A stretch of 64,000 bases of DNA, taken from positions 40,672,001-40,736,000 of the forward strand of contig NC_043005.1 in NCBI RefSeq assembly GCF_006345805.1, in the 5' to 3' direction. Below, piece by piece: positions 1-49,668 of the stretch. The first letter of the stretch is position 1; every line of letters begins with the position of its first letter. The notes below the pieces were generated by a model. That model searched no databases and was not told the DNA's origin. It worked only from the letters and a program-made list of their open reading frames with translations. Source of the stretch: Octopus sinensis (lineage: Eukaryota). The translations under genes were made by a program, and so were the position numbers.

Positions 1-1843
1 ATATATTAACTTCAGCCAAGCCACTTTCCTCAATGCACCACTGCATCATCCCTCATGGTTTTGGACTCTACCTTTACCTTACCTTCTACTCCAAACCCTT
101 CTATTGAGCCCATCCTCTTCCACAAATCCTGTTTCCTCCTGTGCCACCTTCTGATCCACACCGTAACAAATTCACAACCTCAACCTTCTTTCCCAGGCCT
201 GCTTTCTCTTCCTCTCCTTGCTTATTCATAGTTTCATTTACCACCTGAACCACCCACTTTCTCTATTTCATCACCTCCATTAAATTACATAAACTGTACT
301 CTCTTTCATGCCAATCACTCCTCCCCACCACCCTGAAGCTCATTTTCCTCTCCTAGTCTCCCTGCTCCTCCAATTCCCTTTTCCAGCCCATCACCTCCAC
401 TTTCCTACTTTACTTTTCTTTTGATGAAGGACCACTGAGATTCTTTCCTTTCCTTTCTTAAGCATTAAGTTATGCAATATCCATCAAAACTTGTCCCACC
501 TGTGTTGTCTTTTTCTCTTTTTCTTGTCTTCACTGTATAATTCAGCACAGAAAACTAAGTACAAGCTGCCAGCATGAAGATGGCCACAAAAAGAAGGTAA
601 TCATGTGCAAGAATGCCATTTTTGTTAATATAACATTATTAATATATAAATATCAAGATGTACTACTTTTTATGATGCTCTGTCACTGCCTGGATCTTGT
701 ACTTTTAACTATCCAGATATCTGTTTCATAAAAACTTATACAAAAATAATATTTTTCTGAGGCAGAAAGCTAATTTTTGTAAATGGAACCAAAGCATAGC
801 AAAAGTCAACTCTGGGACTTAATTGTACAATAACTATTTTATAATCTGAGAGGCATGAAATTTGAACTCAGAACAATGAAACTACAAATTCCTGGCTCTT
901 TTCTAGAAAACTTACTTCTCCTGCAGAGAAATAATAATCATCATCACCATTGTCACATTCCATTTTTTCATGCTGGCATAGTTTAAGTTGGATGCATCTG
1001 TAATACAACACCAAGTTATCTATCTTGATCATGTCTTATCTCAGACCTTGTGTTCTCCCATAACAAATTATTCCCAAGTCTCCTTTTATCTACTCCTACT
1101 GATTCAGGTATCTTCCAGTAAGTACTAAGCTAAAATAATTTTCACATAGTTACATATATGATATGAAAAGAGTCAGTGACTAACAACCATTTAAAGAAAA
1201 TAGGCAACCACCAACATTTTATATGAACACCTTTGTTGATAGCCTGGAAAAAAAAATTATTTATCAAACTTCATACATGCAAATACACAAAACAAAATAT
1301 AAATATGACAGCTATGATAGACAAAAGACATTTTTCATTTTCTATTATATAATGAATTGTGAAGACTTGTGGCCTTGGGATGCTGCACTCATAATTGCTA
1401 AATCATGGGTTCAACTCCCTCACTTAGTGAAATGTTGTTTTCTGAGCGAAACACTTCACTTCACATTGCTTCTATCAGCTCAGCTGTAAATGTGCAATCC
1501 TGCAATGGAATAACCTCCCTATCAGGAGAAATGTTGGTCTGCTTGTCTAGCAAACAGGTTAGCATCATTTGAAAGCTGAAATGATGCCAAGCACATTATA
1601 ACCAGCAATGTATAATGACACCTGGTAGTCTGGTTTATACCGTGATATACCATGATCAATAATAAATTGGATCGATCAATAGATTCTTTCTCAAAAACAA
1701 ACTTAAGATGTGAATATTAACAAAATAAGATTTGTTGTTCATTCACTAGTGTATGAGTTGTAAACACCTTATAAATTTTTACACTGCTTTTGGTTTCTTT
1801 AAAAGTGAAATGTAAAATAGTAAATAAAGGAAAAACTACCTAC

Positions 1844-1934
1844 CACCATAAGGGTTCAAAACATGCAAATAGTTGCTGGTGAAAGGCTAACCTCTTTGTT
1901 ATATAGCATGGATTGAGCAGAAGATTCCACTTAC
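1844..1934 (-). other. Candidate recursive splice site / RS-exon in the WDR47 intron (91 nt)
   Basis: The minus strand reads ...tttatttatatttcatgtattactttCAG|GTAAGT, a perfect juxtaposed acceptor and donor. A second donor GTG|GTAGGT lies 91 nt downstream. Confidence 0.5.
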
Positions 1935-2467
1935 CTGAAAGTAATACATGAAATATAAATAAAAATTCATTGAAGAAACAAATGCAGTTAATAGTTAAAC
2001 AAAAACACAGAATAAACTGGTAAGTAGAAACTTAAGAGTTTAGATTCTGGCACACTTGCTAGCTTCTTGAGCTGAAAAATTATTGGACAAATCTTTTTAA
2101 TGTACTTGATTTCATAAAGCCAGATTGAAAAGACCAGACAAAAAAAAAAAAAAAAAAAAAATCAAAATCAAGTAACCTAGTGAATGGTACTAGCAAGTCA
2201 AGTAGCAATTACAGCAATGCTTAAAGCAGCAAGTTGGCAAAATCATTAGCTCGCTAGGCAATATGCTTACCAGCATTTCATCCATCTTTATGTTCTGGGT
2301 TCATATGAATGCCCCTGGGTTCAACTTATCCTTTCAGGGTTGATAAATTAAGTACAAGTTGAGCACTAGAGTCAATGTAAACAATTCACTCCCTCCCTGA
2401 AATTGCTGGCCTTGTATAAAATATTTGAAACCAATACAGCAGCAATGTTTGTTATTGTTAAATTTAA

Positions 2468-2692
2468 CCCTTTAACATTCAGATAATTTTGCCACAGGTA
2501 ATGCTTATTTATTCACATTGTTTTCAGTTAATGGATGCATTATCTTGTAGCTTTGAGATATTCATGAGGTGACTGTTTATTTTGAGATGACTTACGAGGC
2601 CAGATTTGGTGTAGGAGGCCAGATTTGACTGTGATCAGCATAAAACAAGTGGTATATTTGGACCTGATATGGCAGGTTTAAATGCTAATGGG
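2468..2692 (+). mobile_element. piggyBac-type MITE, family A
   Basis: TTAA|CCCTTTA...TAATGGG|TTAA. The internal sequence is shared with many other copies in the window. Confidence 0.85.
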
Positions 2693-2914
2693 TTAAAATT
2701 CAAATTCCTTCCCAAACCTCCCTTAACTTCCCCCAGGAATTTCATGTGTTCAATATTCATGTACCTTATATCATTGTATGTCAATCATTTTGTTACCATA
2801 TTTCTTTAGAAATACACTGCCTTTATTTCAATTAATTTTGAAAACAATGAAAGCGTTTAGTTATGTAATTTTATTTACAAGTCCTAAATAAGCTGGTGTT
2901 TAGAACATACATTA

Positions 2915-3245
2915 GGAAGATCCCTTCAGTCAAAAAGCACCATGAGATTGCACCTAGAAAGTTACCGTCTGAAGCAAAAGTCTGGGCAATGTTGTTTATG
3001 GAAGACCAGCAGTTGCCTATGCATACCAGCCTCCTCTCTCCACATCATCAATGTTATCCACGGGAAAGGTAAAGGCTGATACAGCTTAACACCAGTATCA
3101 TTGCAACTCATTTCTACAGCTGAGTGAACTGGAGCAATATGAAATAAAGTGTCTTGCTCAAGAACACAACACACAGCCTGGTCTGATAATCAAATTCATG
3201 ACCTTATGATTGTGAGCCTGATGCTCTAACCACTGAGCCATGCAT
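2915..3245 (-). mobile_element. tRNA-derived SINE (CORE-like central block), nested in a MITE
   Basis: Shares catttctacagctgagtgaactggagca...tcttgctcaag...ctctaaccactgagcca with 30498-30849 and 63480-63700. Confidence 0.75.
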
Positions 3246-3288
3246 TTACAAGAAATTTGGTGGATGGTTTTAATATAGACAATTTTAA

Positions 3289-3508
3289 CCCTTTAGCATT
3301 TAAACTGGCCATATTTGGTCAAAATAATCTTCCTGTTTTATCTTCAAACAGGTCATATCCAGCCTCTCACACTTGCCCTACAATGTTATTCTGAAAATAA
3401 ACAATCACATCACTGAAATCTCAAAGAGACAAGGTAATGCATGAGTAATTCAAATCAATGTGAGTAAACAAGCATTACATTTGACAGAAAAATCTGAAAG
3501 CTAAAGGG
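3289..3508 (-). mobile_element. piggyBac-type MITE, family A (inverted relative to 2468-2692)
   Basis: TTAA TSDs at 3285-3288 and 3509-3512; CCCTTTAGC TIRs. Confidence 0.85.
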
Positions 3509-4428
3509 TTAAAGAATGAAGGATGATAAAAATAGAGTAGATCAACTGGACATGGCTGTGTTTGAATCTGGTCTCAGATGACAATGTATTATCAGAATGT
3601 GGTTGACTTAAGAAAGAAAAATCTTGGAACTTTATTATTTATTCAAAGAATTAATAATACCATTCCAACCCTTTAATTGTTTATACTAACTTTGCCAGGT
3701 TTTCCTTTTGAAATTAAGTAGATCTCTGTATATTGTCAACATTGTTCTTTATACAATTACCAATATTAATTTACTTTGGAAAACATTTACAAGTATTCTA
3801 CTCCAAAAGCCGAACCAGACATTAAATTAAAAGATTTCAATAACAAAGAATGGTCTGTAGCAAGAGGTTAAAACAGTATATTGATCTTGATTTCACCTGA
3901 AAACTACTCCTCCCATTAACACCATTAGGTCTGCATATCTCTTCACCTCCCAGCTGCTGATTTAACAAAGCCTAATAAACATACATGGTCAACGATTATA
4001 GAATTGATTTACAGTAAAAGACTAAACAACAGAGGAAGAAATATACAAAATAGTAATTTATGAAGTTTTAGTATTTCTAAGTCCTCAGCTGCTAGCATGT
4101 CTAGGTAATACAGTTAACGTACACTAAATCTATCAGCTAGTTTAACACCACCAGTTACCTTTCGAGTGCCTTTAGTAGTGTTCACTCTGTTGCAAGCATT
4201 CCAGCTAATTCACCAAATTGAGAGTAAGTTCATCCCTTCATTACATCAGTTTTGTAGGATCACAGAGTCAAAATTATACATAAATGTAAATTATTCTCCC
4301 AATAAATCTTTTTAAGTCACCATTATATATCATCTTATACTGTATGTCTGTCAAATAGAAATCTGGTCAAGATCATCCCTCTTTGAGCTAAACTCTTGGC
4401 AGTATTTGAACACCACACTGCTATTTAA

Positions 4429-4630
4429 CCCTTTCATTACTGTATTTATTTTGAGATGCTCAATTACTTTAAATATAACAAAGAATTTAGTAAAATAACT
4501 TAGTTATCATTCAGCTAATGTTAGGAACATAAATTGTAACTAAGGTTTGGTGGAAGATTTTAATTCAAAACTTATGAAAACAAGACATTTTTACCCAGAG
4601 CCGAATTCAGCCAGGTTGGTAACGAAAGGG
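4429..4630 (+). mobile_element. piggyBac-type MITE, family B
   Basis: TTAA|CCCTTTCATTAC...GTAACGAAAGGG|TTAA. Related partial copies lie near 2785 and at 61110-61345. Confidence 0.85.
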
Positions 4631-7410
4631 TTAAACATTCATGAGCTATGTCGTAATCTGTTATCCAAAGTATCTATTTGAAGCTAGCTTGACTAAGCTA
4701 GCAAAATATCTTGGGAACTAACACAATAGAGAGCCCTTCACATGATACAACCAAAGACACTTTGACTGACCATCATTCTTAATGCCAACCACTTTACAGA
4801 GTGTACTGGGTTCTTTTTTCATGGCACCAGCATTAGTTGGGGTCATCAAGTGACATGCAAGACAAGACTTCTTCACAGAGTTGGGGTGCAGTATTGAGAG
4901 TGGAGGCATTGTGCCAGGTGTAGAGAGACTAAAATAGGAAAAAGGGTCAGGAGTAGGAGTCTTGCTCTACAGAAGGTACATGTTCACTCCAGCAGGAAAT
5001 AAAGATAAGATGGACATGAGGTAGCAGAATATGCCCTCAAGGTAGAAGATACATAGAGAAAGAGTGGAAGTGTGTGTGATGATGGTTGGGTGGGCAACTA
5101 TTAAAATTGTACACCATGTTATACACATGCTAACCCCTTCCACTGGTTCACAATGACAAGCAACAATGTATAATGGATGCTATAAATGAACATGTACATT
5201 TGTGTTGCAATATTAGAAGAGTAAAATTAAGACTTTTTTGTGCAAAGCTTCTGTGGAAGTGCACGTGATTGATATAAATGAAAATCATACTTCTATGGAA
5301 TCATATTATTTATGTTTGTGACCCATTCAATACAGTTTTTATAATATCATATTTTCTTTTCCAGTTTGTCTTTATAAAAAGTTATGGAAGAGTGAAAATC
5401 ACACATATAATACAAAATAAACTTAGTTCTAGCCACCTTCTACACTTCAACCAATACATCAGTGTCACAAAATGTACTAAAAGAATTGTACTTGTAGATA
5501 CAGCAATAAAATAAATTAAAAGAAAAAGGAAAAAGCCAACTATTTTTTATCTAAAAAATATTATTACATCTACTGTTTTAGAACAGCAAGGGTTGCATGA
5601 ATAGGTATATTTACATATTTTGTAAACATTGCCAGTTGGATGAACTTATTTTCAGAATTTATACTTAGTTACCTCTTTGCAAATATTAGCTTCACTGCTT
5701 TGGATTCACAGAGATTTATTTTAGCTAGGCTTTTAGAAGCAAGCCAGGTACTGACAATAACTTTATATTACTCACAGTAATAACAATAAATCTATATTAG
5801 AGGTAGTATATGAACTCCAGACTTTTAGATCAATGAATCAAATCACTTAGCCATTATAGAATCTTTGAAATATTTTCACTCATCCTTATATCATAAGACT
5901 TCTTGAGCAGAGTTAACTACAGTAACATCAAAGACCCCTATAAAGGTCTACTGATGTTCCTTCTGCAAAAAGAAAACATGACTTTGGAATATATAATCTG
6001 AAGAAAGTTTAAGGAAACTCAAAATCAGAAAAGTCCAATGGTATTTTCTGCACATTGTTCTCAAACTTTATACACACTATGACACCAACTCATTCAAAAG
6101 ATAAATTTGAAAGTTCAACTCTCAAGATACTGACTGAAAAAAGTGGTAGAAATATTTCAATTTTACTGTAGATGACATAAGCATTATTGTTTCTGACTTT
6201 AACAGCAGAGAAAATTAAACTGAAATTGAAAAAATTTATATAAACAAATAGAATGAGTGATGCTGTGTTGTAAATAACTAAGTTTTCAGGACCAATGCCA
6301 ACCCACACATTGAGATAAGACAGAAATAGATTTTTTTTTTCCTCTTGAATATTTATACAGAATTATATCTGAAGTGATAAATACATCTGCCAAAAAACAT
6401 ATGGAACATCACCTCAATAGAAAATGGCATGAAACCACTGATGAAATGAGTCTTTCCAGAATGTCAGATCATGTTAGGAATAAATCCAGCAAATTATTTA
6501 CACAGGACCATGAATACATTTACTAAGTACCTAACTTGGATAAAATATTTTCTCAAAAACATTAAAAAAAAAAGTCTTGCTTTCATCTTGCTGATAAAAC
6601 AGCTAATCTTCTGAAGAACATTCTCTGCTATGATAAACTTACAGGCTGTCTCATGTGGATATATTGCAAAATAATTTTTAAAATGCTGAGTCTGTTTTTT
6701 ATGCTAGTGTTGGTTGGGCAGTTTGACAGGAGCTAACAAGCCAGAGTTGCACCAGGCTCCAGTTGTCTGTTTTGGCATGGCTTCTACAGCTGGATGCCCT
6801 TCCTGATGCCAACCACTTTATAGTGTTTTCTGAGAGTTTTTTCTTTTTACAAGGCACTAACATGGGGTATCTTTTTAACTTGATATCTCATTCCCAAACA
6901 TAATTCACATCTCTCTTTACAAAGAGGTCTGATCAACTGTCTCCAATATTGTGCAGCCGTCATGTTTGGTAATCTATTCTGAAGCAACAAATCTAGCAAC
7001 AAGAGGCTTTTGATAAACTATACAATCGATAATATTGGAAATTTAAACACATGAAGAAAGGTAAATAAGTTTGGGTTTGTGCCAATCTATACAGTGGTAC
7101 ATTAAACAACATGCAGGTTTAAGCCAAAAGAAAAGAATTGCTCATGTTTCTAAAGCAAACCTCAAAGACAGAATTGTAATGGCCTTGATGGAACCTTAAT
7201 TTTATTTAGTTTATCATGTTTACTGAAATAGTTTTTTTTTTACTTCCAGATTTGTACGAATGAGGAACATACATGTAAAATAAATTGATAAACTGAAAGA
7301 GAAAAAAAATTCAGAGAAATAAAAGGAATTTAATTATCTTATCTATAAATACAACCAAAGATGAGCAAGAAAACATCACAGACAAAAGCTGTAGTCGCTC
7401 TGGAACAAAA

Positions 7411-10210
7411 TAGAGGTGGTGCAAACATTTCCTCCATGATAAGGAGAATGATAAGATGGAACTGATAAGTTATAAATCCATTTGTTTTTTAAAGTTAAAT
7501 CTTTAACTCCTGATTAAAGGTATTGAAGCTACCTTGAGCTTATAATTTCTGTGCAGTTCATCTGATATTTTGAAGTAGTCAATTTAATATTTAGCTGAAG
7601 TGTTTGTTTGCATTTGAAATAGAAGTTCAGTCAAAATGAACAGAAAATAAAGTGATGGAAAGTTTACACTCTGTATACATTAGTAAATGATTCTTGTGAT
7701 TTAGTGAATAAGAATGATGATGCAGTGTCAACCAGGCCAACTAGTTCCAAGTGCTTGAAATATGTGAAGGGTAAGTGAATGTTATCTGTTATTCATTTTC
7801 AACTGGTCTGAATAAAAAAAAAACCCACCTTTTCACTGTCTCATTTCTTGGAAAAATTAAGCATGAAACAAATGATGCTAAGAAAATTATAGTTCCATTT
7901 TACAAGTCAACATTCATTTGGTAGGAAATCATGCTTCCCACAAATCTTAAAAGCAAGGCTCTACATCCTCTACGAAAAGTCAAAGGCCTCTAGTTTCTAG
8001 ATTTGTTGCTTCAGAATAGATTACCAAGAAAATGATGGCTGCACAATATTGGAGACGGTTGATCAGACCTCTTTGTAAAGACAGGTGTGAATTATGTTTG
8101 GGAATGAGGTTAGTGCTTTGTAAAGGAACACTCAGAACACACTGTAAAGTGGTTGGTACCAGAAAGGGCATCTAGCTGCAGAAACCATGCCAAAACAGAC
8201 AACTGTTGAGCCTGGTTCAACTCTGGCTTGTCAGCTCCTGTCAAACTGCCCAACCCACGCCAGCATGAAAAACGGACATTAAATTACGATGTTAATGGCA
8301 ATAATGATGACCACTCTCAAATGACAGTATATAAGAACGTTGTTAAGAATGTTAGCAGCTGTAGAAGATAGTATTTATATGTCCTTGAAAATTGATGAAA
8401 TGACAGGCATAACTGGGAAATGTTACTTGATGGGATTTGTTTTGTTTGCTCAGAATGATACAGCCAGCTTCCTTAAGCAAGTTAAAATAACTGTAACAGT
8501 TATTGGTATTTTTGAAACAAGATGTCCATATTTCACATTCAACAAAATGTCTGGGAAAATCTGTGTTGGAATTTGCACTGATGTTACTCCAGCCATGACT
8601 GGTATTCTCAAAGGTTTTGTAACACCAGCAAGAAACATTAACCTATACATAATTACAACTGTTTCTTAATGACCAATGCCTTGAAGGATAAACTGCCAGC
8701 TGTTATTGATGCTCCATGGTCCTCAAAAAAAGTCATATCTTTACACAGCTGTTTGAGTATGAATGCTTACTCTAAATCTCTTATCACTTTAATGAAATAT
8801 GGTTATTCAGAAGTAAAACTGTCACGTGTACATCAATTTAAAAAAGAAATTACACTCTTTCTTATCAGTGAAAATGAAAGAAAAATATTCTATCCCATTC
8901 ATGGATGACTTTTCGAGTGCAGACTGGCTTATATTGCTAATATATTTGAGCACATAAAGTTAGCATTAATATGTGTATATACTGATATGTTGCAGTAAAT
9001 ATCACAAATTGACAAAAAGCAATGAAAAGGAAGTCAGCTAGAGTTCAGGATAAAGGTGCAGGTATGACTGTGTGGCAAGAAGATGGTTTCTGAAACACAT
9101 GGTTTTGGGTTCAATCCTACTGCATGGTGCTTCGAACAAGTCTTGTACTATAGCCTAGATCGGCCAAATCCTTATGGGTGGATGATAAATGGATATTAAA
9201 AGAAGCCTGACAAATATGTATATGTGTGTGTGTATTTGTTCCTCACCACAACTGACAACTGGTGTTGATTTCTTTACATTCCCCTAACTTAATGGTTTGG
9301 GAAAAAGAGGCCAAAAGAATAAGGACCAAGCATGAAAAATAAGTACTATGGTTGATCTGGTTGGCAAAACACTTCAAGGCAGTGCCCCAGCATGGATCCA
9401 GTCTAAAACAAAGATGCTAAAACTAATGGAGAATGTATTGACTTCCAACTAACAAAACTGTTGTTCTCTGAGATAGAATTACAATGCAGCTTCATGATTT
9501 GAAAATTAATTAAAAACCCTAAACATGCTATACTCAAGTGTATAGAGTCTCATTTGCTAAGTCTTTTGTCTGCATTAACATGTTACTTTACAGACTGGAC
9601 ATCAAGTGGTATGACTTAAGGAGAAATCCTTTCATAGTAACCATATGAATGAAAGATTTCACATTTCAAGAACAAGATGAAGTTTAAAAATATCCTCTTT
9701 AGCTTCTGGAATTCAATAAAAAGCAAATGCCCAGTTTCCAGAGAGAGCAATAGCTATTTTGCTCCAATGCTCTGAGAACACAGTGCCTCAACCTGAAGAA
9801 ATTATACAAACAAAAAGAAAGCAAAAATTGGTATCCAAGATGACATGGGTGTGTTTGCTAAAACATCCAACCTAAGATTGACAGAATTTGGCAAAAATAC
9901 TAGCAAGAATTTTTTTCCTATCTCAATTTGTTTAAATTTATCATGCTCAACAGTCATAACTGTATAAATATAAGTTAATTGCAGAAAAAGATCAACAATT
10001 TTTTTTATTTTGCATATACTTTCATTGCAATAGAAATGAAGCACTATGGAATTTGGCAGGGATGGGCTGGCTACAAATGAGGTGCCATGGAATTTGGCAG
10101 GGATGGGCTAGAAATGAGGTACCATGGAATTTGGCAGGGATGGGCTAGAAATGAGGTGTTGCAGTACATTAGATACATAATTGTGTCATGAAACAATAAA
10201 ATTGAGAATT
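7411..10210 (+). mobile_element. Decayed hAT transposon (Buster/Charlie, ZBED5/8-like), interrupted by SINEs
   Basis: Translated remnants in order: BED-finger-like region near 7840; a 'HxIGExLIxP' block near 8040; PLSND near 8310; SLKIDEMT and CVGICTDVTPAMTGILKGFV (ORF 8340); LSRVHQFKKEITLFL; a LAYIANIF-like block near 8925; RNPF near 9620; a dimerisation-domain-like block at 9700-9900. The termini are approximate. Confidence 0.78.
10031..10158 (+). repeat. 37-bp tandem repeat, about 3.3 copies, in the hAT 3' subterminal region
   Basis: The unit tagaaatgaggtaccatggaatttggcagggatgggc repeats directly with no spacers. Confidence 0.9.
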
Positions 10211-12989
10211 ATAAATGGAATAAATTTTGCTGACCAGTTAAAGTTTAGTTATCAAGTATATAGTGCTTTTTACGCGACACCATTACAGAGCTTTTTACAT
10301 GGCATCATCACCAGTGCTTTGCATGTACCAATGCGAACATGACATGTTACTGCAAAGGTCACTTACTGACAAAAAGCAACAAACAATAAAAATGATGTCA
10401 ACAAGGGTTCTGGATGAAGCTGGATTGTCATCATCTTGAAGACTTCAAAATTGAAAAAAAAGGCAAAAATAAATTACCTAGAGTCAAAAACACATCACTG
10501 AGCAGGTAATGTGAAGAGGAAGGAGACCACAATAAAATTTTCAAAACACATTAAGCAATGTGAATGAATTACAGGTTATAGCACTTGCCAAGTTATATAT
10601 ATATAGATTGCTTTCAGCTACACCAACACACAATAAATATATATATATATAAGGAGAAAAACAATAAGTTTTAAATCACTGAGTGAGAAATAAGTAGTAA
10701 CAGTACAACAGAGTGAAGTCTATTTGCCAACGTAAAGTGGCAGTCCTGATTAGAATGATATTACTACCTTTTTTAGCCCCAGGAAAAAGACTTTTCTCTC
10801 TTATATATATATATCTCACTCAGTACCAAGTTCAAACCAGCTACAATAGATCAGCATGTGGTTCAAGTGACTCACTTTGCATCTGCTTATAAGCATAGTT
10901 GTGGCTGGTTTGGTTAAGAAGCTTGATTTCCAACCATGTGGTTTGGGGTTCTGTCCCACTGCACACCACTTGGTTAAAGCTCCAGGATGACCAAAGTCTT
11001 GTGAGTGGATTTAATAGACAAAAACTGCAGGCAGTCCATTGCATGTGTGTTCCCTTGTCATGATAGCGTGATGGTTGTAAAAAAAGCACCACCATTATAC
11101 GAGTAATATTGTTTATTCCCTATCTCCTGTAAAAAACATGTCTGACCATGAGAAATATTATCTTGCTTGGAAACCAGTAAGGGAATCTGACCAAGTAGCA
11201 GTCTGCCTGACCTGGGCTATGCACTTTTGTAATTCAGGAAAAGAATTAACTAGTTAATATTATATAGGAACTGTTACAAATTTAGAATGACAGAATCTTG
11301 TGCAAAGTCAGATCAATGGTTTTCACCATACAATTGGCTAGAAATAAATTAGAATTAAACTCCCCCACCCCTGCTGATAACCTTACATTGCAGACTGTCC
11401 TATCCAGTAAATAACACAAGCTGGATTATAAGGGACAAATTAAAATGAAATATATGTAAATCTATGCCTATATTGCTTCTTTCTTTTACCACATCTGCAG
11501 ACATGTATACACCCTCACCGCATAACCACACAAGCTAACAAGGGAGTCTCTACATAATTGCTCAACCCAGAAATAGCAACCAAACATCCATCATATGATA
11601 CACTGCTATCTTAAAAGAGATGATCATGGTTGGATTGTCTTTGATTGCTCAATCAGAGGAGACATGTAGCTAAACAACAATAACATCTCTGGAATTAGAT
11701 TATTATCTAAATTCATCAAGGTCAACCAGTACATTTTATTTCTTTTGCCCAATAAATAAGATAATACAGTTCATCAGATTAACCATTTAGCAGCAATTAA
11801 AATGCAAAATGACACTTAAATCTTGCACCAATGGTGAGATTTGAATTAGTATACAGACACTAATTTAAACAGTTGATGATGTGTGAAAAGAGGTAGTTTA
11901 ATACTTGATAAGAGAATTATACAATTCCATTTCATACTACATAAAAGCACTTTGTAAAAATTTGGTATTCCTATTCCTTTGTGGTTAAGGGAAATAGGTC
12001 CAGGAAAAGAAATAATATGCAGATGAATAAATAATAGCTGGATTATTGACCGAATGGTAATAATTTCAATCGTTAATACCTTGCCTATCTTAGCCTGTTA
12101 CACAATAAACTGAAAACTCATTCCATAATTGAATGGTTAATAGTAACAATTAGCATCCAGCCTTGCTAGATTCATCTTAGCAACACTTATAAAAGATATA
12201 AAATATAGTATGAACAGAAGATGAAAAGTATTTCCCCTGACCTAGTTCTTTAACCCAGTTGGATGTGTGTTTTAAGGAGTCAACTTCACAACCATATTGT
12301 TTCAGGTCAATTTCCAATGCATGGCCCCTAGGGAAAGTGTTTCCTACTATAGCTCAGAGCCAACTAAAGCCTTGTGAGTGGATTTAATAGACATAAACTG
12401 AAAGAAGCTCATTGTTTGTGTGTTTTGCATTTCCTTGTCTTGACATCGTGTGATAGTTGTAAATAAATGTCACTGACATACATAGTGTTGCTTATTTCCA
12501 ACTTTCCATGAAAATATGTCTGACTGGGAAATATTACTTTGCTTGGAAACAGGTGAAGGTCAACAATAGGAAGGGAACTGGGGTGTTAAAAATCTAGCAC
12601 TACAAACTATCCAATCCTATGCAAGCATGGGAAAGTTGATGTTAAAATGATGACAATAAAACTAGAGGAGAAATTTAAATACATATCTGCAGTTTACGAG
12701 CAGATCCCTATCCTCCTTTCTCTGTCTTAATCCAGACAAGAATGCCTAACTACCATTAGTTTATCTTAATACCTTGGTAGTTATCAACTACACGAAGACT
12801 ATCAATTCCCCAGTATGCCATCCTTACCCAGTGTTATGAAGGCCGTCTCAATTCTCAAATAGCTGACCTACCCATTACCATGGTGACAACCTCATTAATA
12901 CCAATTATCTATGACATACAAAATTTTAATCATCAATCAGATTACAAGGCTTACCTAACACAGTAATACTTCTTCCTTTTATGTCATGG

Positions 12990-13620
12990 AAAAATGATGC
13001 TTCACAGCTGTAGTGAAGGCAACCCATGGTAAGAATTCTATATGGTGCACCCAGTCTAAACTATGCACAAGAGGTGCAACAAAATCACAAGAAGCAAGAA
13101 AAGAGGAACTTCATTTGTAGCAGATGACACACTAGCATAATTAGTACTAAGTGCATTCCAGAAAAGAATTCTTTAAAAAACTCAAAATCATAGTAGCCAG
13201 AGTAAGAATGAGAAAGAGATGTTCAGGAAGCAATTTCCACTGTTGCAACATAGGCGTTCTCTTCATGAGTGAAGAGCAGCTTCTTTGTTGATTGTGCATA
13301 ATGCACAGTGCTGCATGGTAGCAATCATGGGTACTGAATGCAGAAAATGTGTGAGTGTGCTGTACTGCAAGTACAATGTTAATATGTGTGGAGAACAGAG
13401 CACAAATGGATTGAGAGAAAAAACTGCATCTAAGAGGATGCAAGAAAGGAGAGTCTGCTGATATGGGCAGTGAATCACATGGAGGATGACAGATGAAAAT
13501 AAACAACCAAAGTGAAGGAAATTGCAGCAGAAGATATAAGAAGAAGCTGAATCTCAAAAAGAAGTTGACAAAAGATTGTAACAAGTGGCAAGATGCTAAT
13601 GTTGGAGAAGACTCATCCAA
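12990..13620 (+). mobile_element. RTE-type LINE 3' fragment, decayed
   Basis: Remnants of a cysteine-rich 'NSIxCxxC' region, 'FRxxxPLL' and 'LHGSxxW' blocks typical of the RTE ORF C-terminus. Confidence 0.6.
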
Positions 13621-13714
13621 CTCATGAATGTAAAATAATGATGATGATGATCACGGTAATAATGATGATGACTTGAATGGCTAGTCGTTCCTATACTGCA
13701 ATAAATTACTATAA

Positions 13715-13857
13715 CCCTTTAGCATTATTCACATTGTTTTAAATTAATCATGCATTATCTTGCAGTTGAGATTTTCATGATGTGATTGCTTATTTTTAGA
13801 AGGACATTGTAAGGTAGTTGTGAGAGGCTGCATCTGGCTGGTTTGAAAACTAAAAGG
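13715..13857 (+). mobile_element. piggyBac MITE family A, internally deleted
   Basis: CCCTTTAGCATT start and the family core cacattgttttaaattaatcatgcattatc. Confidence 0.7.
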
Positions 13858-16282
13858 TTAATATTGGTGGAATGGTCCATTTTGAGAGTTAAATATCTTG
13901 ACCAGAGATGAGATTTGAACCACCAACCTCTCGACTAGTTGTCTAAAAACCATACTCTTAACTCATAATCATACTCTTAACTTAATATTAGCAACTAAAT
14001 CTTTGATGCTCTTGTAAAGTAATTTATAAAATCATCCCAAAAGGAAAGACAAATTATGAAAATTATTGTTCAATGTCTGAATTCATAGTAGAATTCAGGA
14101 CAGTTTTAATGAGGATGACTTCTCACATATACAACTAAGACAATTAATACTCATTTCTAAATTGTTTTAATTATCACGCACACAAAAAACAAAAACAAAA
14201 AAAAACATGTGCACGCGCGCGCGCACACACACATTTTATAAACAATAAAAATACAACAGCCAAAAAATAGCAATGCCTTCAGTGCAAAGTAAAAGTTTTT
14301 AAAATCATGAAGGTCATATGGCTATCATTAAATATGAGGAATGTTCCAGAATACATTCAGGAAAATAGCTGTAATACGAGTTCAAATCACTGGTGTTGGC
14401 TTATGACAGGCAATGTGACATTACCCTAGCAGTAAAATAGGGACCATTTTTATTTTATAGCTTTAGTAGATTGAAATATAATGCCCTACTTAGTTCTTTC
14501 ATTAATATCCACGTTAAAATAAAGCTTAAAAATACCCCACTAATCTTTTAAATATGGAAAATTGAATGTTAAGTAACAAGCAAAAAATTCTAAAGGCTTT
14601 TTATACACACACATAAATATATACATGCTAACATTGGACAGTGAGAATGAGTGCTTAACACTGCATTGTTGGATAAATATTCTTCATTTGTGGGTTAACA
14701 AGGCTATTGATGGTTTCATGGCAAGAGATCTTTGCAATTGTCCAAGTGTGCTACATGGAAGTGTTGGTTATTGTCTCCATTTTGGATGGGGGGGGGGGTC
14801 AAAATTTTGTCATCCACTTTTCCATGCATGCATAGGTTGGACAGAATTTGTTGAGGTGGATTTTTTGTTTTACGGCCAAACATCCTTCCAACCAGTTACC
14901 AAGTAAGGTAATATTTCTCCTGACCAGATAGATATATTTTCACAGAATACTGGAAACAAAGGACACTGGTTGCATTATGTTGACACTCATTTACAAATAT
15001 TATGTGATGTCAAGGCTAGAAGACAGTAACACACACACACACAACAGGCTTCTTTCAGTTTCTATCTACCAAATCTACTCACAAGCTTTTTGTCAGTCTA
15101 GGGTTGCAATAGAAGACACTTGCCTGAGGTACCATACACTGGGACTAAATTGTCATAGGGAAGCAAACATTTTACTACATAGTCATGTCAGCACACACAC
15201 ACACACACACACACATATAAGGTATAAATTAAAAATGCAAAACATCTTTTTTTAAAACGTTCTGCTAAAAAGTCAGTCAGAATAAATACATACTTCACAT
15301 AAAAACTAATGGGGTAAAAAAAAAATCCTCTCATTTCTATAATGAGTGAATCATACATTTTATATTCTACTTTCTAAAATAAAAAACAACAAACAACAAA
15401 AAAATGGCTGCTTGTCTAAGTGTGAGACTATCATCAGCATTACAATCATCATCATCATCATTTTATATATGTTAATGGGAGAAATCTACAAAGCTAGGAG
15501 AAAGACTGATCCAGAAGAAATACCTCTCCATTACCATTCTACTAAAGCAGATGGAAAATTGAGTGTAAAGAGTAAAATAACTAAACTAATTGCTCCAGAG
15601 TAGCTAGATTAGTGCCAAAACTGACTTTTTTTCATTCTTCTTGCTCTTTACTGGCTATGAATGAATCAATCACTGTATATTGAGCCAATAGTTGCTTAAC
15701 CTGCTTGAAATAGCAGCCAAATCTCCCTCAAATCATCACTCATTACTAAATTAGAGAAGGACATTAAAATAACAAAATAATTACAATTGGAATGCCTTTG
15801 TCCATAAGTCTGATCATGGACTGAGATAGAGCTGTTCAAAAACAAGAACCACTGATTATTATTAGTATTTTTTTGTTATATAATAGACAGAAGCAGAAAA
15901 TGTTAAGTCAGAACATTGATTACTTCAAAATATATCCAGATCTCTACCAACTGCACCAATATTTTTGAGAGTAACAATACTACGAGACCATTCCTACTGC
16001 AGCCATCACAAAAGAAGAACATTTGTCATACTTATAACATAACTCAAGATCAAAAGTTATATAATCAGCAACTGAATAGAGAATATATTGTTGTTCTTGA
16101 CCAGTCATGGACAAACTGCAGCCCTTGAGTCTTTCTGAAAGGTACACTAACAAAAAATTACCTTGAATTTTAGTAGTAAGGTATGACTGATAATAAACAA
16201 TGTCTCATGTGAAAAAGGGTTGCCCATACCTGCTCTAAACAATGAAGTACAGCATAGGAAGGCTATTCAAGAAGAGACTCAA

Positions 16283-16487
16283 ACCTATAGCATTTAAACC
16301 AGCCATAATATTATATCCCAGTTTTATGTTCAAACTGGCCCAATCTGGCTCCTCACACCAACCCTACAATATCATTCTAAAAATTAGCAGTTACCTAATA
16401 AAAATCTCAACCCAAAAAGATAATGTATGATTAATTCAAAACAATGTGAATAAACACATTTGATTGAATAATCTGAATGCTAAAGAG
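16283..16487 (-). mobile_element. piggyBac MITE family A
   Basis: Reverse-orientation copy of the family core, ending tctgaatgctaaagag. Confidence 0.75.
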
Positions 16488-17266
16488 TTCATCATCATCA
16501 TTTAATGTCCGTTTTCTATGCTGGCATGGGTTGGACAGCTTGACAGGAACTGGTATGGCCAGGGACTGCATCAGGTTCCATAGTCTGTTTTGGTTTGGTT
16601 TCTATGGCTGGATGCCTTTCCTAACACCAACCACTTTATAGAGTGTAATGGGTGCTTTGTTTTTTTTGTGGCACCATCACCAGTGTTTTTTAAGTGACAC
16701 TAGCACCCACACCAACACATTAAATGACACTTTGGGTTTAGGATCTCAATTTTGTTGTGGTGGGCTGGTCTCCCAAATACAGCAATGCGCCACATATCTT
16801 GGTCTCTGTCAGCAATGCACTGATCCCTTCTATAATGTATTTGTTCAAGTAAAACTGTCTAAGGTGACTTATAAGATCATCAGACAACACAGAAGACAAG
16901 AACAACAGTAAAACCAACAACATTTTCAGAAATGTATAAACAGTAATAGCAACATGCTCACTTTCTGCAGTAAGTCAACACAGTTTGGAATCTAATGAGA
17001 ATACTAGATTCATCAGTTAAGTGACAGGAGTTGATAAATGTACTTTTTTCTTCTTACAACAACAGAAAAAGACAGCACGTCTAATTTGATGAAATTGACA
17101 CTTTAGATCTTAAAAAAAAAAAAGAAAAAAATATTTAAGAAAATACTAGCATATGCTTCACTTATGCAAATTTGCATAAATTGTTTCACCTTCTAATTTT
17201 CCACATGACTGTCTCTTCAAATACCTTGGAAATCATTCAACAAGTAGCAAAGTACATATGCTTTAA

Positions 17267-17484
17267 CCCTTTAATATTCAAATTACTGTCAAATGTAATG
17301 CTTATTCATTCACATTGTTTTGAATTAATCATGCATTATCTCATAGCTTTGAAATTTTGACGAGGTGTTTGTTTAGTCTTAGAATGATATTGTTAGGTAG
17401 GTGTGAGAGTTTGGGTGTGGCTGGTTTGAACATAAAGCAACTATAAGATTTAGGCTGGATATGGCCAGTTTAAATGCTAAAGGG
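17267..17484 (+). mobile_element. piggyBac MITE family A with a duplicated right end
   Basis: TTAA|CCCTTTA start. The terminal 25 bp or so (gtttaaatgctaaagggtaaacatg) are tandemly duplicated. Confidence 0.8.
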
Positions 17485-17925
17485 TAAACATGGTTTAAAT
17501 GCTAAAGAGTAAACATGGTTTAGTATTTTAGGTTAAGATAAAATAACTACTGTTTCTATATTGTAGGTACTCATAAAGCTGGTAATTATTTCTATATATT
17601 TTTGCATGATTGATACATCTTTCTCTAGAGAGGCATTCAGTCTATCATGACTAACATCTCTCAACAATATTCCTATTCTTTAAGTCAATCCAAATGACTG
17701 TTGAAGCATGTAAAAACATTTTTCTCAGAGAAATGACAAAGCATCCTTAGATGTAAATTTAAAAGCAACATTACTAATACATAGTCTTTAACTTAGGTTA
17801 TTTGCACTCAATTCTAACTCAAGAAGTTCCTGCACTCATACCTGTCTAACAGTAGCAGCTATAAAAGCAGAACCAACAAAGAAGCCTCTACCTGGTCATA
17901 TGATCTACAAGAAATAGGAGCCAAA

Positions 17926-18158
17926 AGCGACAAGCTGGCAGAAACGTTAGCAAAACGTTAGGCAAAATGCTTAGCGGCGTTTCGTCTGCCGCTACGTTCC
18001 GAGTTCAAATTCCGCCAAGGTCAACTTAGCCTGTCATCCTCTCGGGGTCGATTAAATAAGTACCAGTTACGCACTGGGTTCAATATAATCGACTTAATCC
18101 GTTTGTCTGTCCTTGTTTGTCTTCTCTGTGTGTAGCCCCTTGTAGGCAGTAAAGTAAT
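17926..18158 (+). mobile_element. Young CpG-rich tRNA-derived SINE with a 17-bp TSD
   Basis: B-box-like GAGTTCAAATTCC. Flanking direct repeats aagaaataggagccaaa (17909-17925) and aagaaatagcagccaaa (18159-18175). Confidence 0.88.
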
Positions 18159-18548
18159 AAGAAATAGCAGCCAAACCGCCCCTTTAATAGCACCCCACTG
18201 GAATAAAAAGGCAAGGACACAGAGGATAATGTAGCTTTAGAAATACAATATTAATATTTTAGAATAAAACAGGATAGTCATGACTAGAGTACCCTTGATC
18301 ATAGCTTTGTTCATTCAGGTTGACCTGGAACCAAACAACGATGAAAACAATGACAATTACAATGAAAACAATGAAAGCAGTTGCTTTTCTGAAATATTCA
18401 AATTAACTTCTCAAATATTCTATTCAAACAGCAGCATTGCATAAATATTATCTATAAATACAAATAGCTAAGTTGCTATGGATATGATATAATAAGCTGT
18501 AAGCCTCACAATATGCCACAACAATGTTATTGTTATTTTGTCAGTTAC

Positions 18549-18584
18549 CTCTAAGACAGGATCCAACTCTACCAAGATGTTTAC
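18549..18584 (-). other. Candidate 36-nt in-frame small exon / RS-exon of WDR47
   Basis: The minus strand has a very long pyrimidine tract tttctttcatttttttattttcatttttgttaaaCAG|GTAAAC...TTAGAG|GTAACT. The 36 nt are open in phase 1 (G)KHLGRVGSCLR, which matches the exon-1 donor phase. Confidence 0.45.
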
Positions 18585-20248
18585 CTGTTTAACAAAAATG
18601 AAAATAAAAAAATGAAAGAAATTTAATTGTTTCTAATAGAGGCACATGGTCTGAATATTCTTCTGTGGGGGGGGGGTATCTTGTTGATTAAATCAACTTC
18701 AGTACATGACTGGAACTTTATGTTATTGACCCCAAAAGGCTGAAAGGAAAAGTTGATTTTGGTAGAATTTGAATTAAAAATGTAAAGTTCCTAAAGAAAT
18801 GCCACTAAGCACTTTGTCCACATTGCAAAAGCTTCTGCCAATAAGTCTTCAACCATTAGTAGGATTCCAGTAGAAAAGCTGTACCACAAAATCTATCACA
18901 TCTACTTCAAGTCATATGATTTTCAGGAAAATTTCCTTTGAATAGTGATACCATAATTTCAGCAACACAATGGAGCTGACTCACATACTCTCTCCACCAC
19001 TCTTTCCAAAAATAAAGGAACAACATAATAGGAGATGCCCTAATTTTAACTAAGCCCATAACAGCAAAGTAAAAAGTGGTATTCTTGCAGTGTAATTTTA
19101 TTTTTCAATAACTGGAAAGTGAATCAAACAGAATAGGCCTTTTGTTAGAAGTTTGTGGGGTTAACACCTACATTCTTTATTCTTAACCCTTTCGGTACAT
19201 ACTTGGCAGATTTGGTGATACTAAGTCACTAAACTGTTCATTTTTAGATTAAAACATTCCCCTCACAATTTTCTTCTGAATACCAGCTTGATATACAAAT
19301 ATACAAACAAATGAAAATGTTACATGTAATTTCCAAAACAGATAATTTAGAGGAGTTAAGCAAATTAATTGAAACATAGGCAGTGTAATTCTGGTAGAAA
19401 TATGGCCACACAAGAGTTAGATTGAAGACCCCACAGGCATGAAAAGTGACTTGAATTTTATTTGTAATTTTGTGCTGAGGTTTCCATATTATCATCAGCA
19501 GAACGATTCTCAACACACATATGTGCATTGTTGAAAAAATGCCCAACATCACCAACTTTTGTTTTTAAAGCTAGACACTCTTCCTAAATATAATCAATCA
19601 TAAAGTGAAACTAACACAGTAACATGTCTGTGCTAAATTAAGAGAAGTGTAAAATAGTACCAGTATAAACACTATAACCATTCATTACATTCAAATCCAT
19701 TATGATCATTTCACTAATTAACAATGAAGCGAGAGAGCTGTGGCACATATAAGCAGAGTAATTGTAACTTACTCCACATGTTTAACAGTATGACTGTTGA
19801 ATAAGTTTAACTCATGACATTGTGTCAAAGAAATTCTTAGCTTCACAGCCATTGTGCTTCTCTTAAGATTTTAAAGGCTTTACCAATTATAGAGTTGAAG
19901 GATAATGAAATAAATAAATCTACATTATATTTAGTCTTCTTAGTATTTAATTAGGTCCCCCCACCCATCAGTAAAGTAATAGGGTCCAGATATGCCAGGA
20001 TTTTGTTGCTAGATTTTGGTATACGATATACGTATACATGTACTAGGCATAATGCTCTACCAGCTTTAGACACCACTGAACCATGGATGCCATTCACAGA
20101 GTTTATTTTGTTGCAGGCATTCAGACCAGAACCTCTGGTTCCAACTTTGTCCAGATTTTTCCTGAAGACATAGACCAGATGTCCTGGCAGCTAGGTACCA
20201 GTCACATCAATGTTACCAGTACAGAAAAGCTTTCAACATGTCATAATA

Positions 20249-20464
20249 CAGTAATCCCTCGACTATTGCAGGTGTTACATTCTGAAACCCACCCGTGATA
20301 TGTGAAAACCCACAAAGTAGAAACAGTACTGTACGTTTTTTTTTATCATTTTTATAAGTTCTATATATTTATTTTATAATAAATACAAAATACCACAGAG
20401 GAATGGACGTAAGCTTAAATAATAAACTGTGACAGGTGAACCGTGACACGGTGAGGGATTACTG
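20249..20464. mobile_element. Tigger/pogo-like MITE
   Basis: Perfect 12-bp TIR CAGTAATCCCTC / GAGGGATTACTG with TA on both sides. Confidence 0.8.
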
Positions 20465-20520
20465 TACACAGTTAATTTAAAAGTAAAAAGAAAATTAGCA
20501 ATTTTTTCTTTGTCTATCTA

Positions 20521-21762
20521 TCAGAACATCCCATAAGTTCTGTCTGATTTTACCTTTTTTAAAATTGAATGAAATTTAAAAGTATTTTAGAATGTCTAAT
20601 GGAATTAAATATTATTTTTATGCATTTGTGTACATTTAAACTAATTAAATATTGTTTTACAAAATAATAGAATTAAAATTTCTTTGATTAAAACCCTTTC
20701 TAACATGGAAGTATCCAAAGAGCATTTGAGGCACATAATGCTTCATGAGCACAAAAAAATAAACTCTGCAGCCGAAGTGACTCGAAACATACACTCAGTT
20801 TATGAGAAAGAATGCTTGAATGAAAGAACTTGCAGAAGATGGTTTGCAAAATTCAGAAGTGGAGATTTCAGCCTTGAAGATGAAGACCCAGTTGAGTTTG
20901 ATGATAAACTCCTTGAGGCATTACTTGAAGAAAATCCTGCATTATCAGTTGAAGAATTGGCAATAAAGCTTAGTTCAAATCATACAACTGTTCATCATCA
21001 TCTTCAACAACTTGGAAAAGTTCCTAAACTTGGAAAATGGGTGCCTCATGAATTGTCCAAAAGCAACCACAAATCCCGAGTTGACATCTGATCTCTCCAT
21101 TCTCGTGACTGGTGACAAAAACTGGATCTTCTAGTGGAATGTTAAACGTTGTAAACAGTGTCTTGGTAAAAGGTAAAAAGCTCAACCACAACCAAGAAGG
21201 GAACTTCATGGAAAGAAAGGTTCTTTTCTCTATCTGGTTGGATTGCGAAGGAGTAATTCACTTTGAATTGTTACCACCTAATGCAACAATCAATGCTCAA
21301 GTCTACTGTCAACAATTAGAGCATTTGAACCAAGCTTTGAAGAGAAAAAACCCCACTTTAGTGAATTGAAAAGGAATGATGTTTCATCAGGACAATGCGT
21401 GACCCCACACTGCAAAGATCACATCACAGAAGATCAAAGAGCTTGGTTAGGAAAAAATTCCTCATCCACCTTATTCTCCCAACCTTGCTGCTTTAGACTA
21501 CCATTTGTTTCGTAGTTTGCAGAATCACTTGGGGGACATAACTTTAGCAAGCCAGGAGGAGGTGGAAACTGACATTTCAGAGTTCTTTGCTTTGAAACCA
21601 AAAGAGTTTTATATTGATGGGATTAAAAACCTTGTAAATAGATGGAAGGAAGTCATAGATAATCAGACAAAGTACATTGATGATTAAATTTCAATTAAAT
21701 ATAACATTTGATCACTTGTTTTCTTTATTTAAAATTTGGACAGAACTTATGGGATGACCTGA
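20521..21762 (+). mobile_element. Near full-length mariner (DD34D) transposon, decayed
   Basis: TIRs of about 30 bp (tcagaacatcccataagttctgtc / gacagaacttatgggatgacctga), TA on the left flank, length about 1.24 kb. Confidence 0.93.
20705..21687 (+). pseudogene. Mariner transposase pseudogene with frameshifts and stops
   Basis: Motifs MEVSKEHLRHIML, WFAKFRSGDFSLEDE, WVPHEL, TGDKNW, HQDNA*PH and HPPYSPNLAALDYHLF are spread over three frames (ORFs at 20684, 21112, 21505). Confidence 0.93.
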
Positions 21763-24700
21763 TGTGTAAAAAAATGTTCAACCAACTAATCTGATTGGCG
21801 TCATCTCTCTTGCTTTTAAATTTTAAACATCACCTCGACAGTGTTTACCTAATTGGTTAGACAATTGTCATTATCAAAATTTTGGAATTCACTTTACATG
21901 CACACGTGTTTGTGTTGTCACATAGGTAGTCTATACGGAGAAAAGAAAAGATACAAGAGGGAGAGAAAGAAGCAATGAAACTAATTTCTAAAAGTCAGAA
22001 CTAAAAATGTGCATAGAAGTTATATTATACTATATTTATCTCCTTATAGAAGCATGAGAGAAACATTTCTATACATTTATACATGTTTTTGTATTGCTTA
22101 TTTGCATTGCACTGCAATGTTACTTGAAAGCTTAACTGGTTCCTCCATTTGACTACATAGCTCAAACAGCTACCACCTACTGCCAGAGTATATTAAATAT
22201 GAAGATGGCTTGCATTCCAATGCCTAAGGTGATAAATATTTGGACCAGTTAGCAGTGCAAGCCATATTTATTATAGCAGTGACACTAACCCCAGGGGAGC
22301 CTATACATAGTTGCCTAAACTGCTATACTACCATTAATACACACAAATAAATAAATAAATAAAATTATGGATACATAAGATAATATCTTCAATACACTAT
22401 GCCTAAAATTTACCATGTTTATTCTAGTTTTGGAATGGGCTTACTAGCATACTGTAAGAATCCCCAAACCATAAAATGATGGTTGAGAAAACTGTTCAAA
22501 TCATACTAGTATGGGAAATGCAGATGTAAAATGTTGAGGAAAATATACTGCATCTGAAATTAAGACAAGATAATAATGGCTGGAATACCTTTGACCCATA
22601 TGTCTGCTTGATAAGGAATGACCTGAGCAAACGAGGACAGAGTGTGGCTATCAGCAACATGGATAAAGTCAACAAGAAGACATCAATATCAATGAAAAAA
22701 CAAATCTGATTTAAAGGCTGATGTTCCCTACTGATGTCTGTAATACATTTGTCTTAGTCTACATGCCATTCTGTTCTGGAATATCTAAACTAAGATCCAC
22801 ACTCTTTGACATTCCTTGATATGCTTCTGTCTCATGTACCCTAAACAATATGAACTCAAATTCTTCAACCAGTAAGCACATCTTTTTAAAATTCCATAGC
22901 CATATCAGGTGGGGATCATGATGTCTTTGAAGATATCTTTCTTCAGCTCTCTAATTAGTACACTAAGTTTTTCATGCACAAAAATTTATATCTGAAATTT
23001 CAACTTCTAGTGTAATTAATTATAAGCTTAAGATTAGATGTAAATCTCCCCTTTTTAATTGCTTAGACCAATAATTGCAATGAATGTCCTATACATACAT
23101 GCACACACACACACATACATATATATATACACATACAGGGTGACAGTGCTAAGCAGTGATGTGTATAAATACAAACTTGTTACCAGTTCAGATATGCAAG
23201 AAGCATATTTGAACCAGTAATTCACTGTATTTTGTCAGGGAGAAAATCTACTGTAGACAGATATATATAGATAGGATACAGTACAAACTCTTCATACTAT
23301 TTCTCTCTTTAACACTGGATGATGTGAATTTCTCTTTGCACTGCCTTGTGATATTCCATGAAGACCCTCTAGAATTGATTCATGTCAGCCTATAAGAAAT
23401 AGGCTATCACTTGCTAATTTTTAAACTGATTAAGAAGGAATAAGGAATAATGGAGTTATTTCCCCCAGCTACATAGAGGCAGGAAATAGGATTGGCTACC
23501 TTAGACTGAAAATGTCAGTGAAAATGCCAAATATATTCACACCATTTATATAGTTGTTTTATGCTGCAGAAGAAACTCACTGGAGTTAATTTCATAAATG
23601 ACATTCCTATAGTTCTTAGCCTTCATTAAGTAGTTTTTGATAATCATTTGTATGGTGATATAAAAGACATAAGGTTCCATATAGAGGAGTGCTGTTACTT
23701 GTTTCAATCTCAAGCTGTGACCATGTCCACTCAATTTAATGTGCACATCACGATCAGATCAGATTTACTGCTCGCCTTAAATCTGGAGCTTTGGGACTAC
23801 TCAAAAAGAAATCAATATCTATTCATATCACTGAGGGTAGTAAAATTTCGCCACAGTTGATAGCTGATAGTTTCTATTATAAACATGTTTTTGTTTAATC
23901 CCAGGTCAGTCTTGGTGCAGTAGTTTTATAATCAAAAGCATTCCAGCCATGACACTCCTGTTTTCAGACAATAACCTCTGATATGTCTTTTCCAAGGACA
24001 TGAGTTTCAGAAAATTTTGGCTCCCCTGTCAAGTGACCAAGTAGAAGGTCTAATATTGGCTTTTGTGTGTGTGCGTGCGTGTGTGTGTGAGAGAGAGAGA
24101 GAGAATAGTGAGCATCAATGTATTAATGACTGCACTAATTAATTATTCTCTGCAATTCAAATGGATCGTCAGCTAAGATGGCTTGGACATTTGGTGTACA
24201 GGTCTGACTAAAGCCTCCCTGCACACCCCAGTAGGATCTTTGCTGGTCATCTTTATTATGGTCAATGATAAACCAAAGGGTTTTAAAGACCAGTTCTTCA
24301 AAACTGGAAGGCATTGATACCTACCATTAAATTTAATGGTATAACTTGGAAAAGATATAGAGGAGAAACACACTCGGCACTACCACAAGAAAATAAAGAA
24401 CATAGAGAATTATACTTAGCCCTTCAACATGGAGATGTCATGATGGCAAAGAAGGTTCTATAACCAAAATATAGTCATCAAAAGATCCACAAATCAAAGA
24501 AAACTTGGTCATCAATGGATTCAGTGGGTGGCCCTAGGCAACAAGCAAGCAAGAGAAGTCATCTTCATCGCTGTTTAATGTCTGCCTTCCATCCTGGCAT
24601 GGGTTGGATGGTCTGACAGAAGCTGGCCAGGTAGATGACTACACCAGACTATTGTATCTGCTTTGGCATGGTTTTTACAGCTGGATGCCCTTCCTAACAT

Positions 24701-35486: not shown

Positions 35487-35518
<32 letters not shown>

Positions 35519-37739: not shown

Positions 37740-37774
<35 letters not shown>

Positions 37775-49637: not shown

Positions 49638-49668
<31 letters not shown>

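Follow-up and report, generated by a model that had tools for sequence, protein, structure and literature searches.

Results

WDR47 and Its 65.5-kb Intron

The window, by which we mean the whole 64,000-nucleotide stretch of Octopus sinensis DNA that was analysed (contig NC_043005.1, positions 40,672,001 to 40,736,000), carries on its minus strand the first coding exon of WDR47, a gene tied to microtubules and neurons in mammals, together with most of the intron that follows it. The open reading frame at 52645–51097 is 100% identical to named O. sinensis WDR47 isoforms, and Pfam WDR47_COR is matched in the full-length isoform. The extent of the intron was obtained by mapping full-length isoforms on the window and on 200 kb beside it (in all motifs below, a slash marks the splice junction).

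51097..52645, minus strand: first coding exon of WDR47, 516 codons, ending in phase 1 at CAG/GTAAGT
1..51096, minus strand: host intron, running 14.4 kb past the window start, 65,523 nt in total

Four more cassette exons lie between exon 1 and the WD40 part of the gene, and the annotated isoforms range from 886 to 1070 residues; skipping these linker cassettes makes the removed stretch longer still. The retrieved protein set also holds two 517-residue proteins, from another octopod, that end in ...GTPGK and are most simply explained as intron read-through. A broken mariner-type transposase (HTH_48 plus Transposase_1) lies within the intron at 20645–21684 on the plus strand. Exons with an EF-Tu-type GTPase domain (53850–63365, plus strand) face WDR47 head to head, at a distance of about 1.2 kb from the WDR47 start codon; they are part of a gene that we take to resemble the selenocysteine elongation factor EEFSEC.

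An Acceptor Fused to a Consensus Donor

Deep in the intron, on the WDR47 strand, the sequence TTTCAG/GTAAGT at 1935/1934 sets an acceptor directly against a consensus donor, as the initial annotation had reported.

1937..2016, minus strand: AG-free, T-rich zone of 80 nt, the polypyrimidine tract region of the acceptor, with TT at −6/−5
1987..1998, minus strand: two TTAAC branch-point-like words at −64 and −57, putative in role
1935..1937, minus strand: CAG of the 3′ splice site
1929..1934, minus strand: GTAAGT donor; joining to exon 1 would regenerate CAG/GTAAGT, the same as exon 1's own donor
1892..1934, minus strand: candidate 43-nt cryptic exon with donor GAG/GTTAGC (GT at 1891); frameshift, stop after residue 538
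1844..1934, minus strand: candidate 91-nt cryptic exon; stop formed at the junction with the next exon (546 residues)
1838..1843, minus strand: second donor GTG/GTAGGT (GT at 1843), overlapped by TAG/GTAGTT at +95

The window has just two copies of AGGTAAGT, both on the minus strand: the exon 1 donor and this ratchet-like site. The site lies 49,162 nt from the exon 1 donor, 16,614 nt from the donor of a microexon described below, and 16,361 nt from the intron end, so that the earlier figure of about 49 kb in a giant intron stands, with the addition that the intron extends past the window. Bases 1700–2100 give a single match in the genome; repeats start near 2200 and below 1630, and we ruled out that the site falls within a repeat.

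The initial annotation called the site perfect, a description that suits the donor but not the acceptor, whose tract is T-rich yet interrupted. An AG-free zone of at least 80 nt accompanies 4.6% of 1078 background TTTCAG words. The overall acceptor score is 1.7, as against a 5th percentile of 6.9 for the training sites, which had been chosen for ten straight pyrimidines; the −50 to −15 part of the tract scores 6.8, within the interquartile range of those sites. The upstream region ranks among the top 2.2% of background YAG, yet it is weaker than that of most strong members of the class described below.

The predicted second donor, GTG/GTAGGT 91 nt on, is present, but it has a nearer competitor, GAG/GTTAGC at +43, that scores about the same, and the cryptic exon may be 43 nt long instead. 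On an ad hoc scale, for which we chose the weights of the U1 consensus ourselves, the +43 and +91 donors score 4.75 and 5.0, and the regenerated donor scores 7.25 after exon 1 and 6.75 after the microexon. Relative to the class, both downstream donors are middling, and +91 is at the long end. Phase 1 is indeed open through the 91-nt segment, and exon 1 ends in that same phase. An insert of 43, 91 or 95 nt would in each case shift the frame (43 and 91 are both 3n+1), with a stop at residue 539–548, before the WD40 repeats. The frameshift agrees with the initial annotation. The peptide of the segment is absent from all 168 retrieved proteins, 29 named Octopus isoforms among them, a set in which decay isoforms are not expected, since annotations would not translate them. 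A 30-residue query, short and of little power, found no match among 1.84 billion representatives. In the assembled contigs of four sequencing runs over 900–3300, a coverage gap at 1629–2195 spans the site, so these contigs are uninformative on junctions; an exon 1 query was present in 19 of 23 runs, all assembled contigs and none on record as RNA.

How often would such a site arise by accident? Six YAG/GTAAGT words occur in 1.152 Mb of flanking DNA, which corresponds to 0.34 per strand per 65.5 kb. An upstream score this high is reached by 2.2% of background YAG, so that about 0.008 such sites are expected per intron of 65.5 kb, a figure that is rough because the acceptor model, trained on strong sites, was built only once the site had been seen.

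A Microexon and a Third Candidate in the Same Intron

Two further sense-strand sites in the intron bear on how it might be removed.

18549..18584, minus strand: annotated 36-nt cassette microexon (GKHLGRVGSCLR), beginning CAG/GTAAAC, without TT at −6/−5
36269..36277, minus strand: weak candidate TAG/GTAGGT with a 50-nt AG-free zone, no good downstream donor and no TT, picked after the fact

Of the 29 WDR47 isoforms named for Octopus, in three species, 14 include the microexon; its peptide is identical in O. sinensis, O. vulgaris and O. bimaculoides, inclusion is alternative in all three, and we did not find it in the Argonauta or other cephalopod proteins retrieved. Its acceptor is in the top 1% of background YAG. 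The donor that would be regenerated, GTAAAC, scores 5.0 as compared with 5.25 for the microexon's own donor, a near equality that would be consistent with partial inclusion of the kind shown by the Ubx microexons of Drosophila. From its sequence, the microexon may be the expressed form of a recursive device; ordinary cassette skipping accounts for it equally well.

Sense-strand YAG/GTA with a long AG-free, T-rich tract occurs in the intron only at 36274, 18584 and 1934. These three sites would cut it into pieces of 14.8, 17.7, 16.6 and 16.4 kb, and pieces this nearly equal arise from three random points with a probability of 0.0009. Because the site at 36274 is weak and was chosen after the fact, we treat the near-equal spacing as a lead only.

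A Genome-Wide Class of Fused Sites

The motif Y10NCAG/GTAAGT occurs 116 times in the genome, both strands counted, as compared with 28 occurrences of the reversed control and a Markov expectation of 29–55. Y10NTAG/GTAAGT occurs 97 times against an expectation of 24–49, although it barely exceeds its own reversed control (81). The AAG control (29 in the genome; Markov expectation 29–45; reversed 61) shows no excess. All Markov expectations were derived from 2.27 Mb of fetched DNA. With CAG and TAG in excess and AAG not, the enrichment follows acceptor triplets rather than the donor-type AAG. The ending AAGT accounts for 116 of 952 WWRW endings, as compared with 2–6% in the background. A pattern fitted to the WDR47 site has 55 matches in the genome, as compared with eight in the reversed control, and makes up 55 of 431 WWRW endings; this pattern was tailored to the site, and 9–24 of the 55 matches would be expected by chance. 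The genome-wide count called for by the initial annotation therefore reveals an excess, with the sense-versus-antisense comparison approximated here by strand agreement rather than counted in annotated introns.

Large contigs hold 99 of the 116 CAG sites and 81 of the 97 TAG sites. The remaining strong sites are on small contigs, which may include duplicates or foreign DNA; many homeobox matches are likewise on small contigs, several of them duplicated.

From the 213 strong sites, 121 records were taken for closer study; setting aside eight of them (two re-fetched, three duplicates and three repeat copies) left 113, which are not a random sample because 28 sites were picked for being clustered. 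A donor scoring at least 5 lies at +25 to +100 in 49 of these 113, as compared with 7.5% of background windows and three of 54 controls (2/29 and 1/25). The proportion in subsets not chosen by clustering is 10 of 30 (the first CAG sites in list order), 11 of 30, and 13 of 31 unclustered sites. Such a donor also accompanies 8 of the 12 T-rich, non-Y10 relatives of the WDR47 pattern that were examined. The implied cryptic exons peak at +30 to +95, with a median of 55 nt, and for 37 of the 49 the length is not divisible by three. Downstream of the first 30 sites, reading frames are short, the longest having a median of 16.5 codons. The frequency of TT at −6/−5 is 93 of 113 among class sites, 25 of 54 among controls and 49 of 126 in the background, and branch-like words are weakly enriched (59/113 sites, 19/54 controls). 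T-over-A skew is not discriminating: it is positive at 10 kb for 42 of 61 sites, and for controls too (17/29 and 17/25).

The sites are clustered, and the clusters keep largely to one strand. The large contigs carry 180 of the sites, with 17 pairs of neighbours no more than 250 kb apart, as compared with 4.3 under uniform placement. With duplicates removed, neighbours on the same strand outnumber those on opposite strands 14:1 for distances up to 250 kb and 26:2 up to 1 Mb. For 34 held-out sites the ratio is 9:1 within 500 kb, falling to 11:4 at 1 Mb, and the AAG control gives 1:3. Where clustered, strong sites are about 70–240 kb apart, with only the strongest counted. Sites with an I-set or homeobox exon up to 1 Mb away on their 3′ side share its strand 10:2, and those with such an exon on the 5′ side 1:3; the agreement with 3′ exons would fit sites in long 5′ introns. 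A scan of flanking long open reading frames for host genes, covering 50 of 123, returned eight transposon domains, one sub-threshold match and nothing for 41.

Two other sources of clustering were considered and rejected. Tandem duplication does not account for it, since sequence is shared only within the C15 triplet, a C16 pair and one four-copy repeat family, and neither do protocadherin arrays, since nearly all Cadherin_2 matches fall on C14, at a distance from the clusters.

Individual clusters are of some interest. Seven strong sites lie on one strand within 1.1 Mb at C13:49.5-50.6 Mb (minus strand), and the six that were fetched share no sequence; this grouping suggests one very large gene. 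Three co-oriented sites at C18:51.37-51.76 Mb (plus strand) share their strand with a nearby I-set exon (C18:52190682), as do three at C5:92.7-93.8 Mb (minus strand) with another (C5:92848719). At C15:63.42-63.54 Mb (minus strand), three copies, 79–84% identical, each carry a strong acceptor fused to GTAAGT, the product of tandem duplication. A dispersed repeat family, represented by four records, carries Y10NTAG/GTAAGT, and repeats may seed such sites.

Discussion

The over-representation of a fused acceptor-donor signal in this genome indicates that octopuses, like flies, likely remove some of their long introns in steps. The existence of such a class is more secure than the membership of the WDR47 site in it. 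For the site itself, we consider it probable that it is a recursive splice site, a ratchet point of the Drosophila type with a cryptic exon. This judgement has two parts: that the site belongs to the class, which we hold to be very likely, and that a member of the class would be spliced recursively, of which we are nearly confident. Membership is favored by the sense strand, an intron longer than 11 kb, the TT, the 80-nt AG-free zone, the −50 to −15 score inside the interquartile range of the class, a qualifying donor at +91 and the frequent occurrence of such a donor among the T-rich, non-Y10 relatives; it is disfavored by the interrupted tract and by an overall score under the 5th percentile of the strong set. 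At the level of sequence, the site appears to have every feature expected of a Drosophila ratchet point. The recursive-splicing reading put forward in the initial annotation draws support, at the level of DNA, from the motif excess, the downstream cryptic donor, the TT and the clustering on one strand.

Comparison with Known Systems

The closest parallel is with the Drosophila ratchet points of kuz, Ubx (Ubx-RP), Bx, luna and Ten-m, where a strong acceptor likewise abuts a consensus donor in a long intron (PMC8605326; 10.1101/006163; PMC6110457). As in the octopus, the fly sites are followed by a short cryptic exon (about 50 nt), mostly out of frame, with a weaker donor, and several co-oriented sites may occupy one region. 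TT at −6/−5 is given for 196 of 197 fly ratchet points (Duff et al., 10.1101/006163), and the median fly segment of 16,368 nt in the same source may be set beside the 16,361 nt of the last WDR47 segment. Flies have several sites per intron, dividing it into pieces of about 9–15 kb (Pai et al., PMC6110457). The two systems differ in their evidence, since proof of the Drosophila sites comes from junction reads, saw-tooth coverage, lariats, mutation and conservation and the octopus site is known from DNA, and also in that the octopus genome is 2.7 Gb and repeat-rich.

The WDR47 microexon has its own counterpart in the Ubx microexons m1 and m2 (PMC8605326): it keeps the frame, is included alternatively and begins with GTAA, and, as at Ubx, a silent site, here a candidate one, lies downstream of it in a single long intron. 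It differs from m1 and m2 in its weak regenerated donor, GTAAAC, and in having no TT at −6/−5, and it is a candidate for recursion only.

An excess of the motif (y)nncag|gtaagt in large introns was described in four insects and a sea urchin (Shepard et al. 2009, PMC2773006). The excess there was 4 to 22 times in the five invertebrates, as compared with about 2–4 times genome-wide in the octopus, but the two ratios are built differently: theirs sets introns against the complementary strand, and ours sets the whole genome against Markov and motif controls. None of the 13 species compared there is a mollusc or other lophotrochozoan. In the locust, an insect with a very large genome, the excess is reported to be absent and the ratio vertebrate-like (PMC3896762). 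Vertebrate recursive sites (Sibley et al. 2015, via PMC8605326) share with the octopus site a cryptic exon with a premature stop and a competition between donors. Fully suppressed sites in long introns number only nine noted in mammals, as compared with more than 500 in flies (PMC8605326); the octopus excess of roughly 110–160 among the strongest sites alone looks fly-like.

Alternative Explanations

The class could be real and the WDR47 site no member of it, an unused AG/GTAAGT that happens to follow a T-rich stretch, on the T-rich strand of an AT-rich intron. We regard this as rather unlikely. For YAG/GTAAGT by itself the expectation is 0.34 per strand over 65.5 kb, a sizable fraction of the matches to the fitted pattern (9–24 of 55) would be random, the tract is interrupted, and many windows were scanned, so that some such matches are to be expected. 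Set against these points are the joint estimate of about 0.008 per intron, the combination of sense orientation, TT signature and a donor at +91, and the finding that no antisense YAG/GTA in the intron has a comparable AG-free, T-rich tract.

A second possibility, which we think quite improbable, is a regulated poison cassette exon of 43 or 91 nt whose conventional inclusion or skipping tunes WDR47 through nonsense-mediated decay, the GTAAGT being incidental. Both lengths would shift the frame and introduce a stop ahead of the WD40 repeats, the WDR47 linker has several cassette exons, and decay isoforms would be missing from protein collections. A poison exon has no need, however, of a consensus donor at its start, the very feature that is enriched genome-wide, and the regenerated donor, at 7.25, is far above the exon's own donors at 4.75 and 5.0.

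It is very improbable that GTAAGT serves as the conventional donor for an 82-nt exon at 2016–1935 with its acceptor AG at 2018–2017. That upstream AG does follow a short pyrimidine-rich run, and the donor would be a perfect CAG/GTAAGT; but 47 of the 82 bases are T, phase 1 contains stops, the AG-free zone of the acceptor is only 12 nt, and AAG, a common donor context, shows none of the genome-wide excess seen with CAG and TAG. Scarcely credible, finally, is an ordinary coding exon or an alternative last exon yielding a short WDR47 that lacks the WD40 repeats: exon 1 ends in phase 1 and the segment is free of stops in that phase, yet the peptide of the segment was found in none of the 168 proteins and, with a short query of little power, in none of the 1.84 billion representatives, no AATAAA or ATTAAA occurs within 1 kb downstream, and the coding-exon reading, named in the initial annotation as one that would overturn recursive splicing, is excluded by the frameshift at 43, 91 and 95 nt and by the absence of the segment from all 29 named Octopus isoforms.

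A Proposed Pathway

If the site is a ratchet point, splicing could proceed as follows, each step being modeled by analogy with the account in PMC8605326. U2AF and U2 at the tract, together with U1 at the +43 or +91 donor, would define a short cryptic exon. The upstream exon, either exon 1 (49.2 kb off) or the microexon (16.6 kb off), would then be joined to 1934, and this join would regenerate a consensus AG/GTAAGT donor able to outcompete the weaker +43 and +91 donors. The final 16.4 kb would be removed next, and no base of the site would be kept in the mRNA. Occasional use of a downstream donor would produce a premature stop and, probably, nonsense-mediated decay.

Implications

Recursive splicing is proven in flies and in a few vertebrate genes; because the mechanism itself is known, its appearance here is only moderately surprising. 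That it is not known to have been described in molluscs, as the initial annotation has it, agrees with our search, which turned up no molluscan report in the literature covered (most subscription journals and supplements were outside its scope). A cephalopod with a large, repeat-rich genome and long neuronal genes offers a test of whether recursive splicing is an old bilaterian device or one that is lost as genomes expand. With about 200 strong candidate sites listed, that test is cheap, calling for one nascent-RNA data set, and the WDR47 intron is of value in pairing a silent candidate site with a possible expressed form.

We offer tentatively, as a speculation that we hold less likely than not, a more ambitious view: that the octopus has a system on the scale of the fly's, with hundreds of ratchet points and their cryptic exons, and that WDR47 has three of them (36274, 18584 and 1934), one of which, as at Ubx, has come to be translated, as a microexon of 12 residues. 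A fly-scale system in the octopus, if true, would be ancestral to protostomes or bilaterians and would contradict the idea that genome expansion replaces ratchet points.
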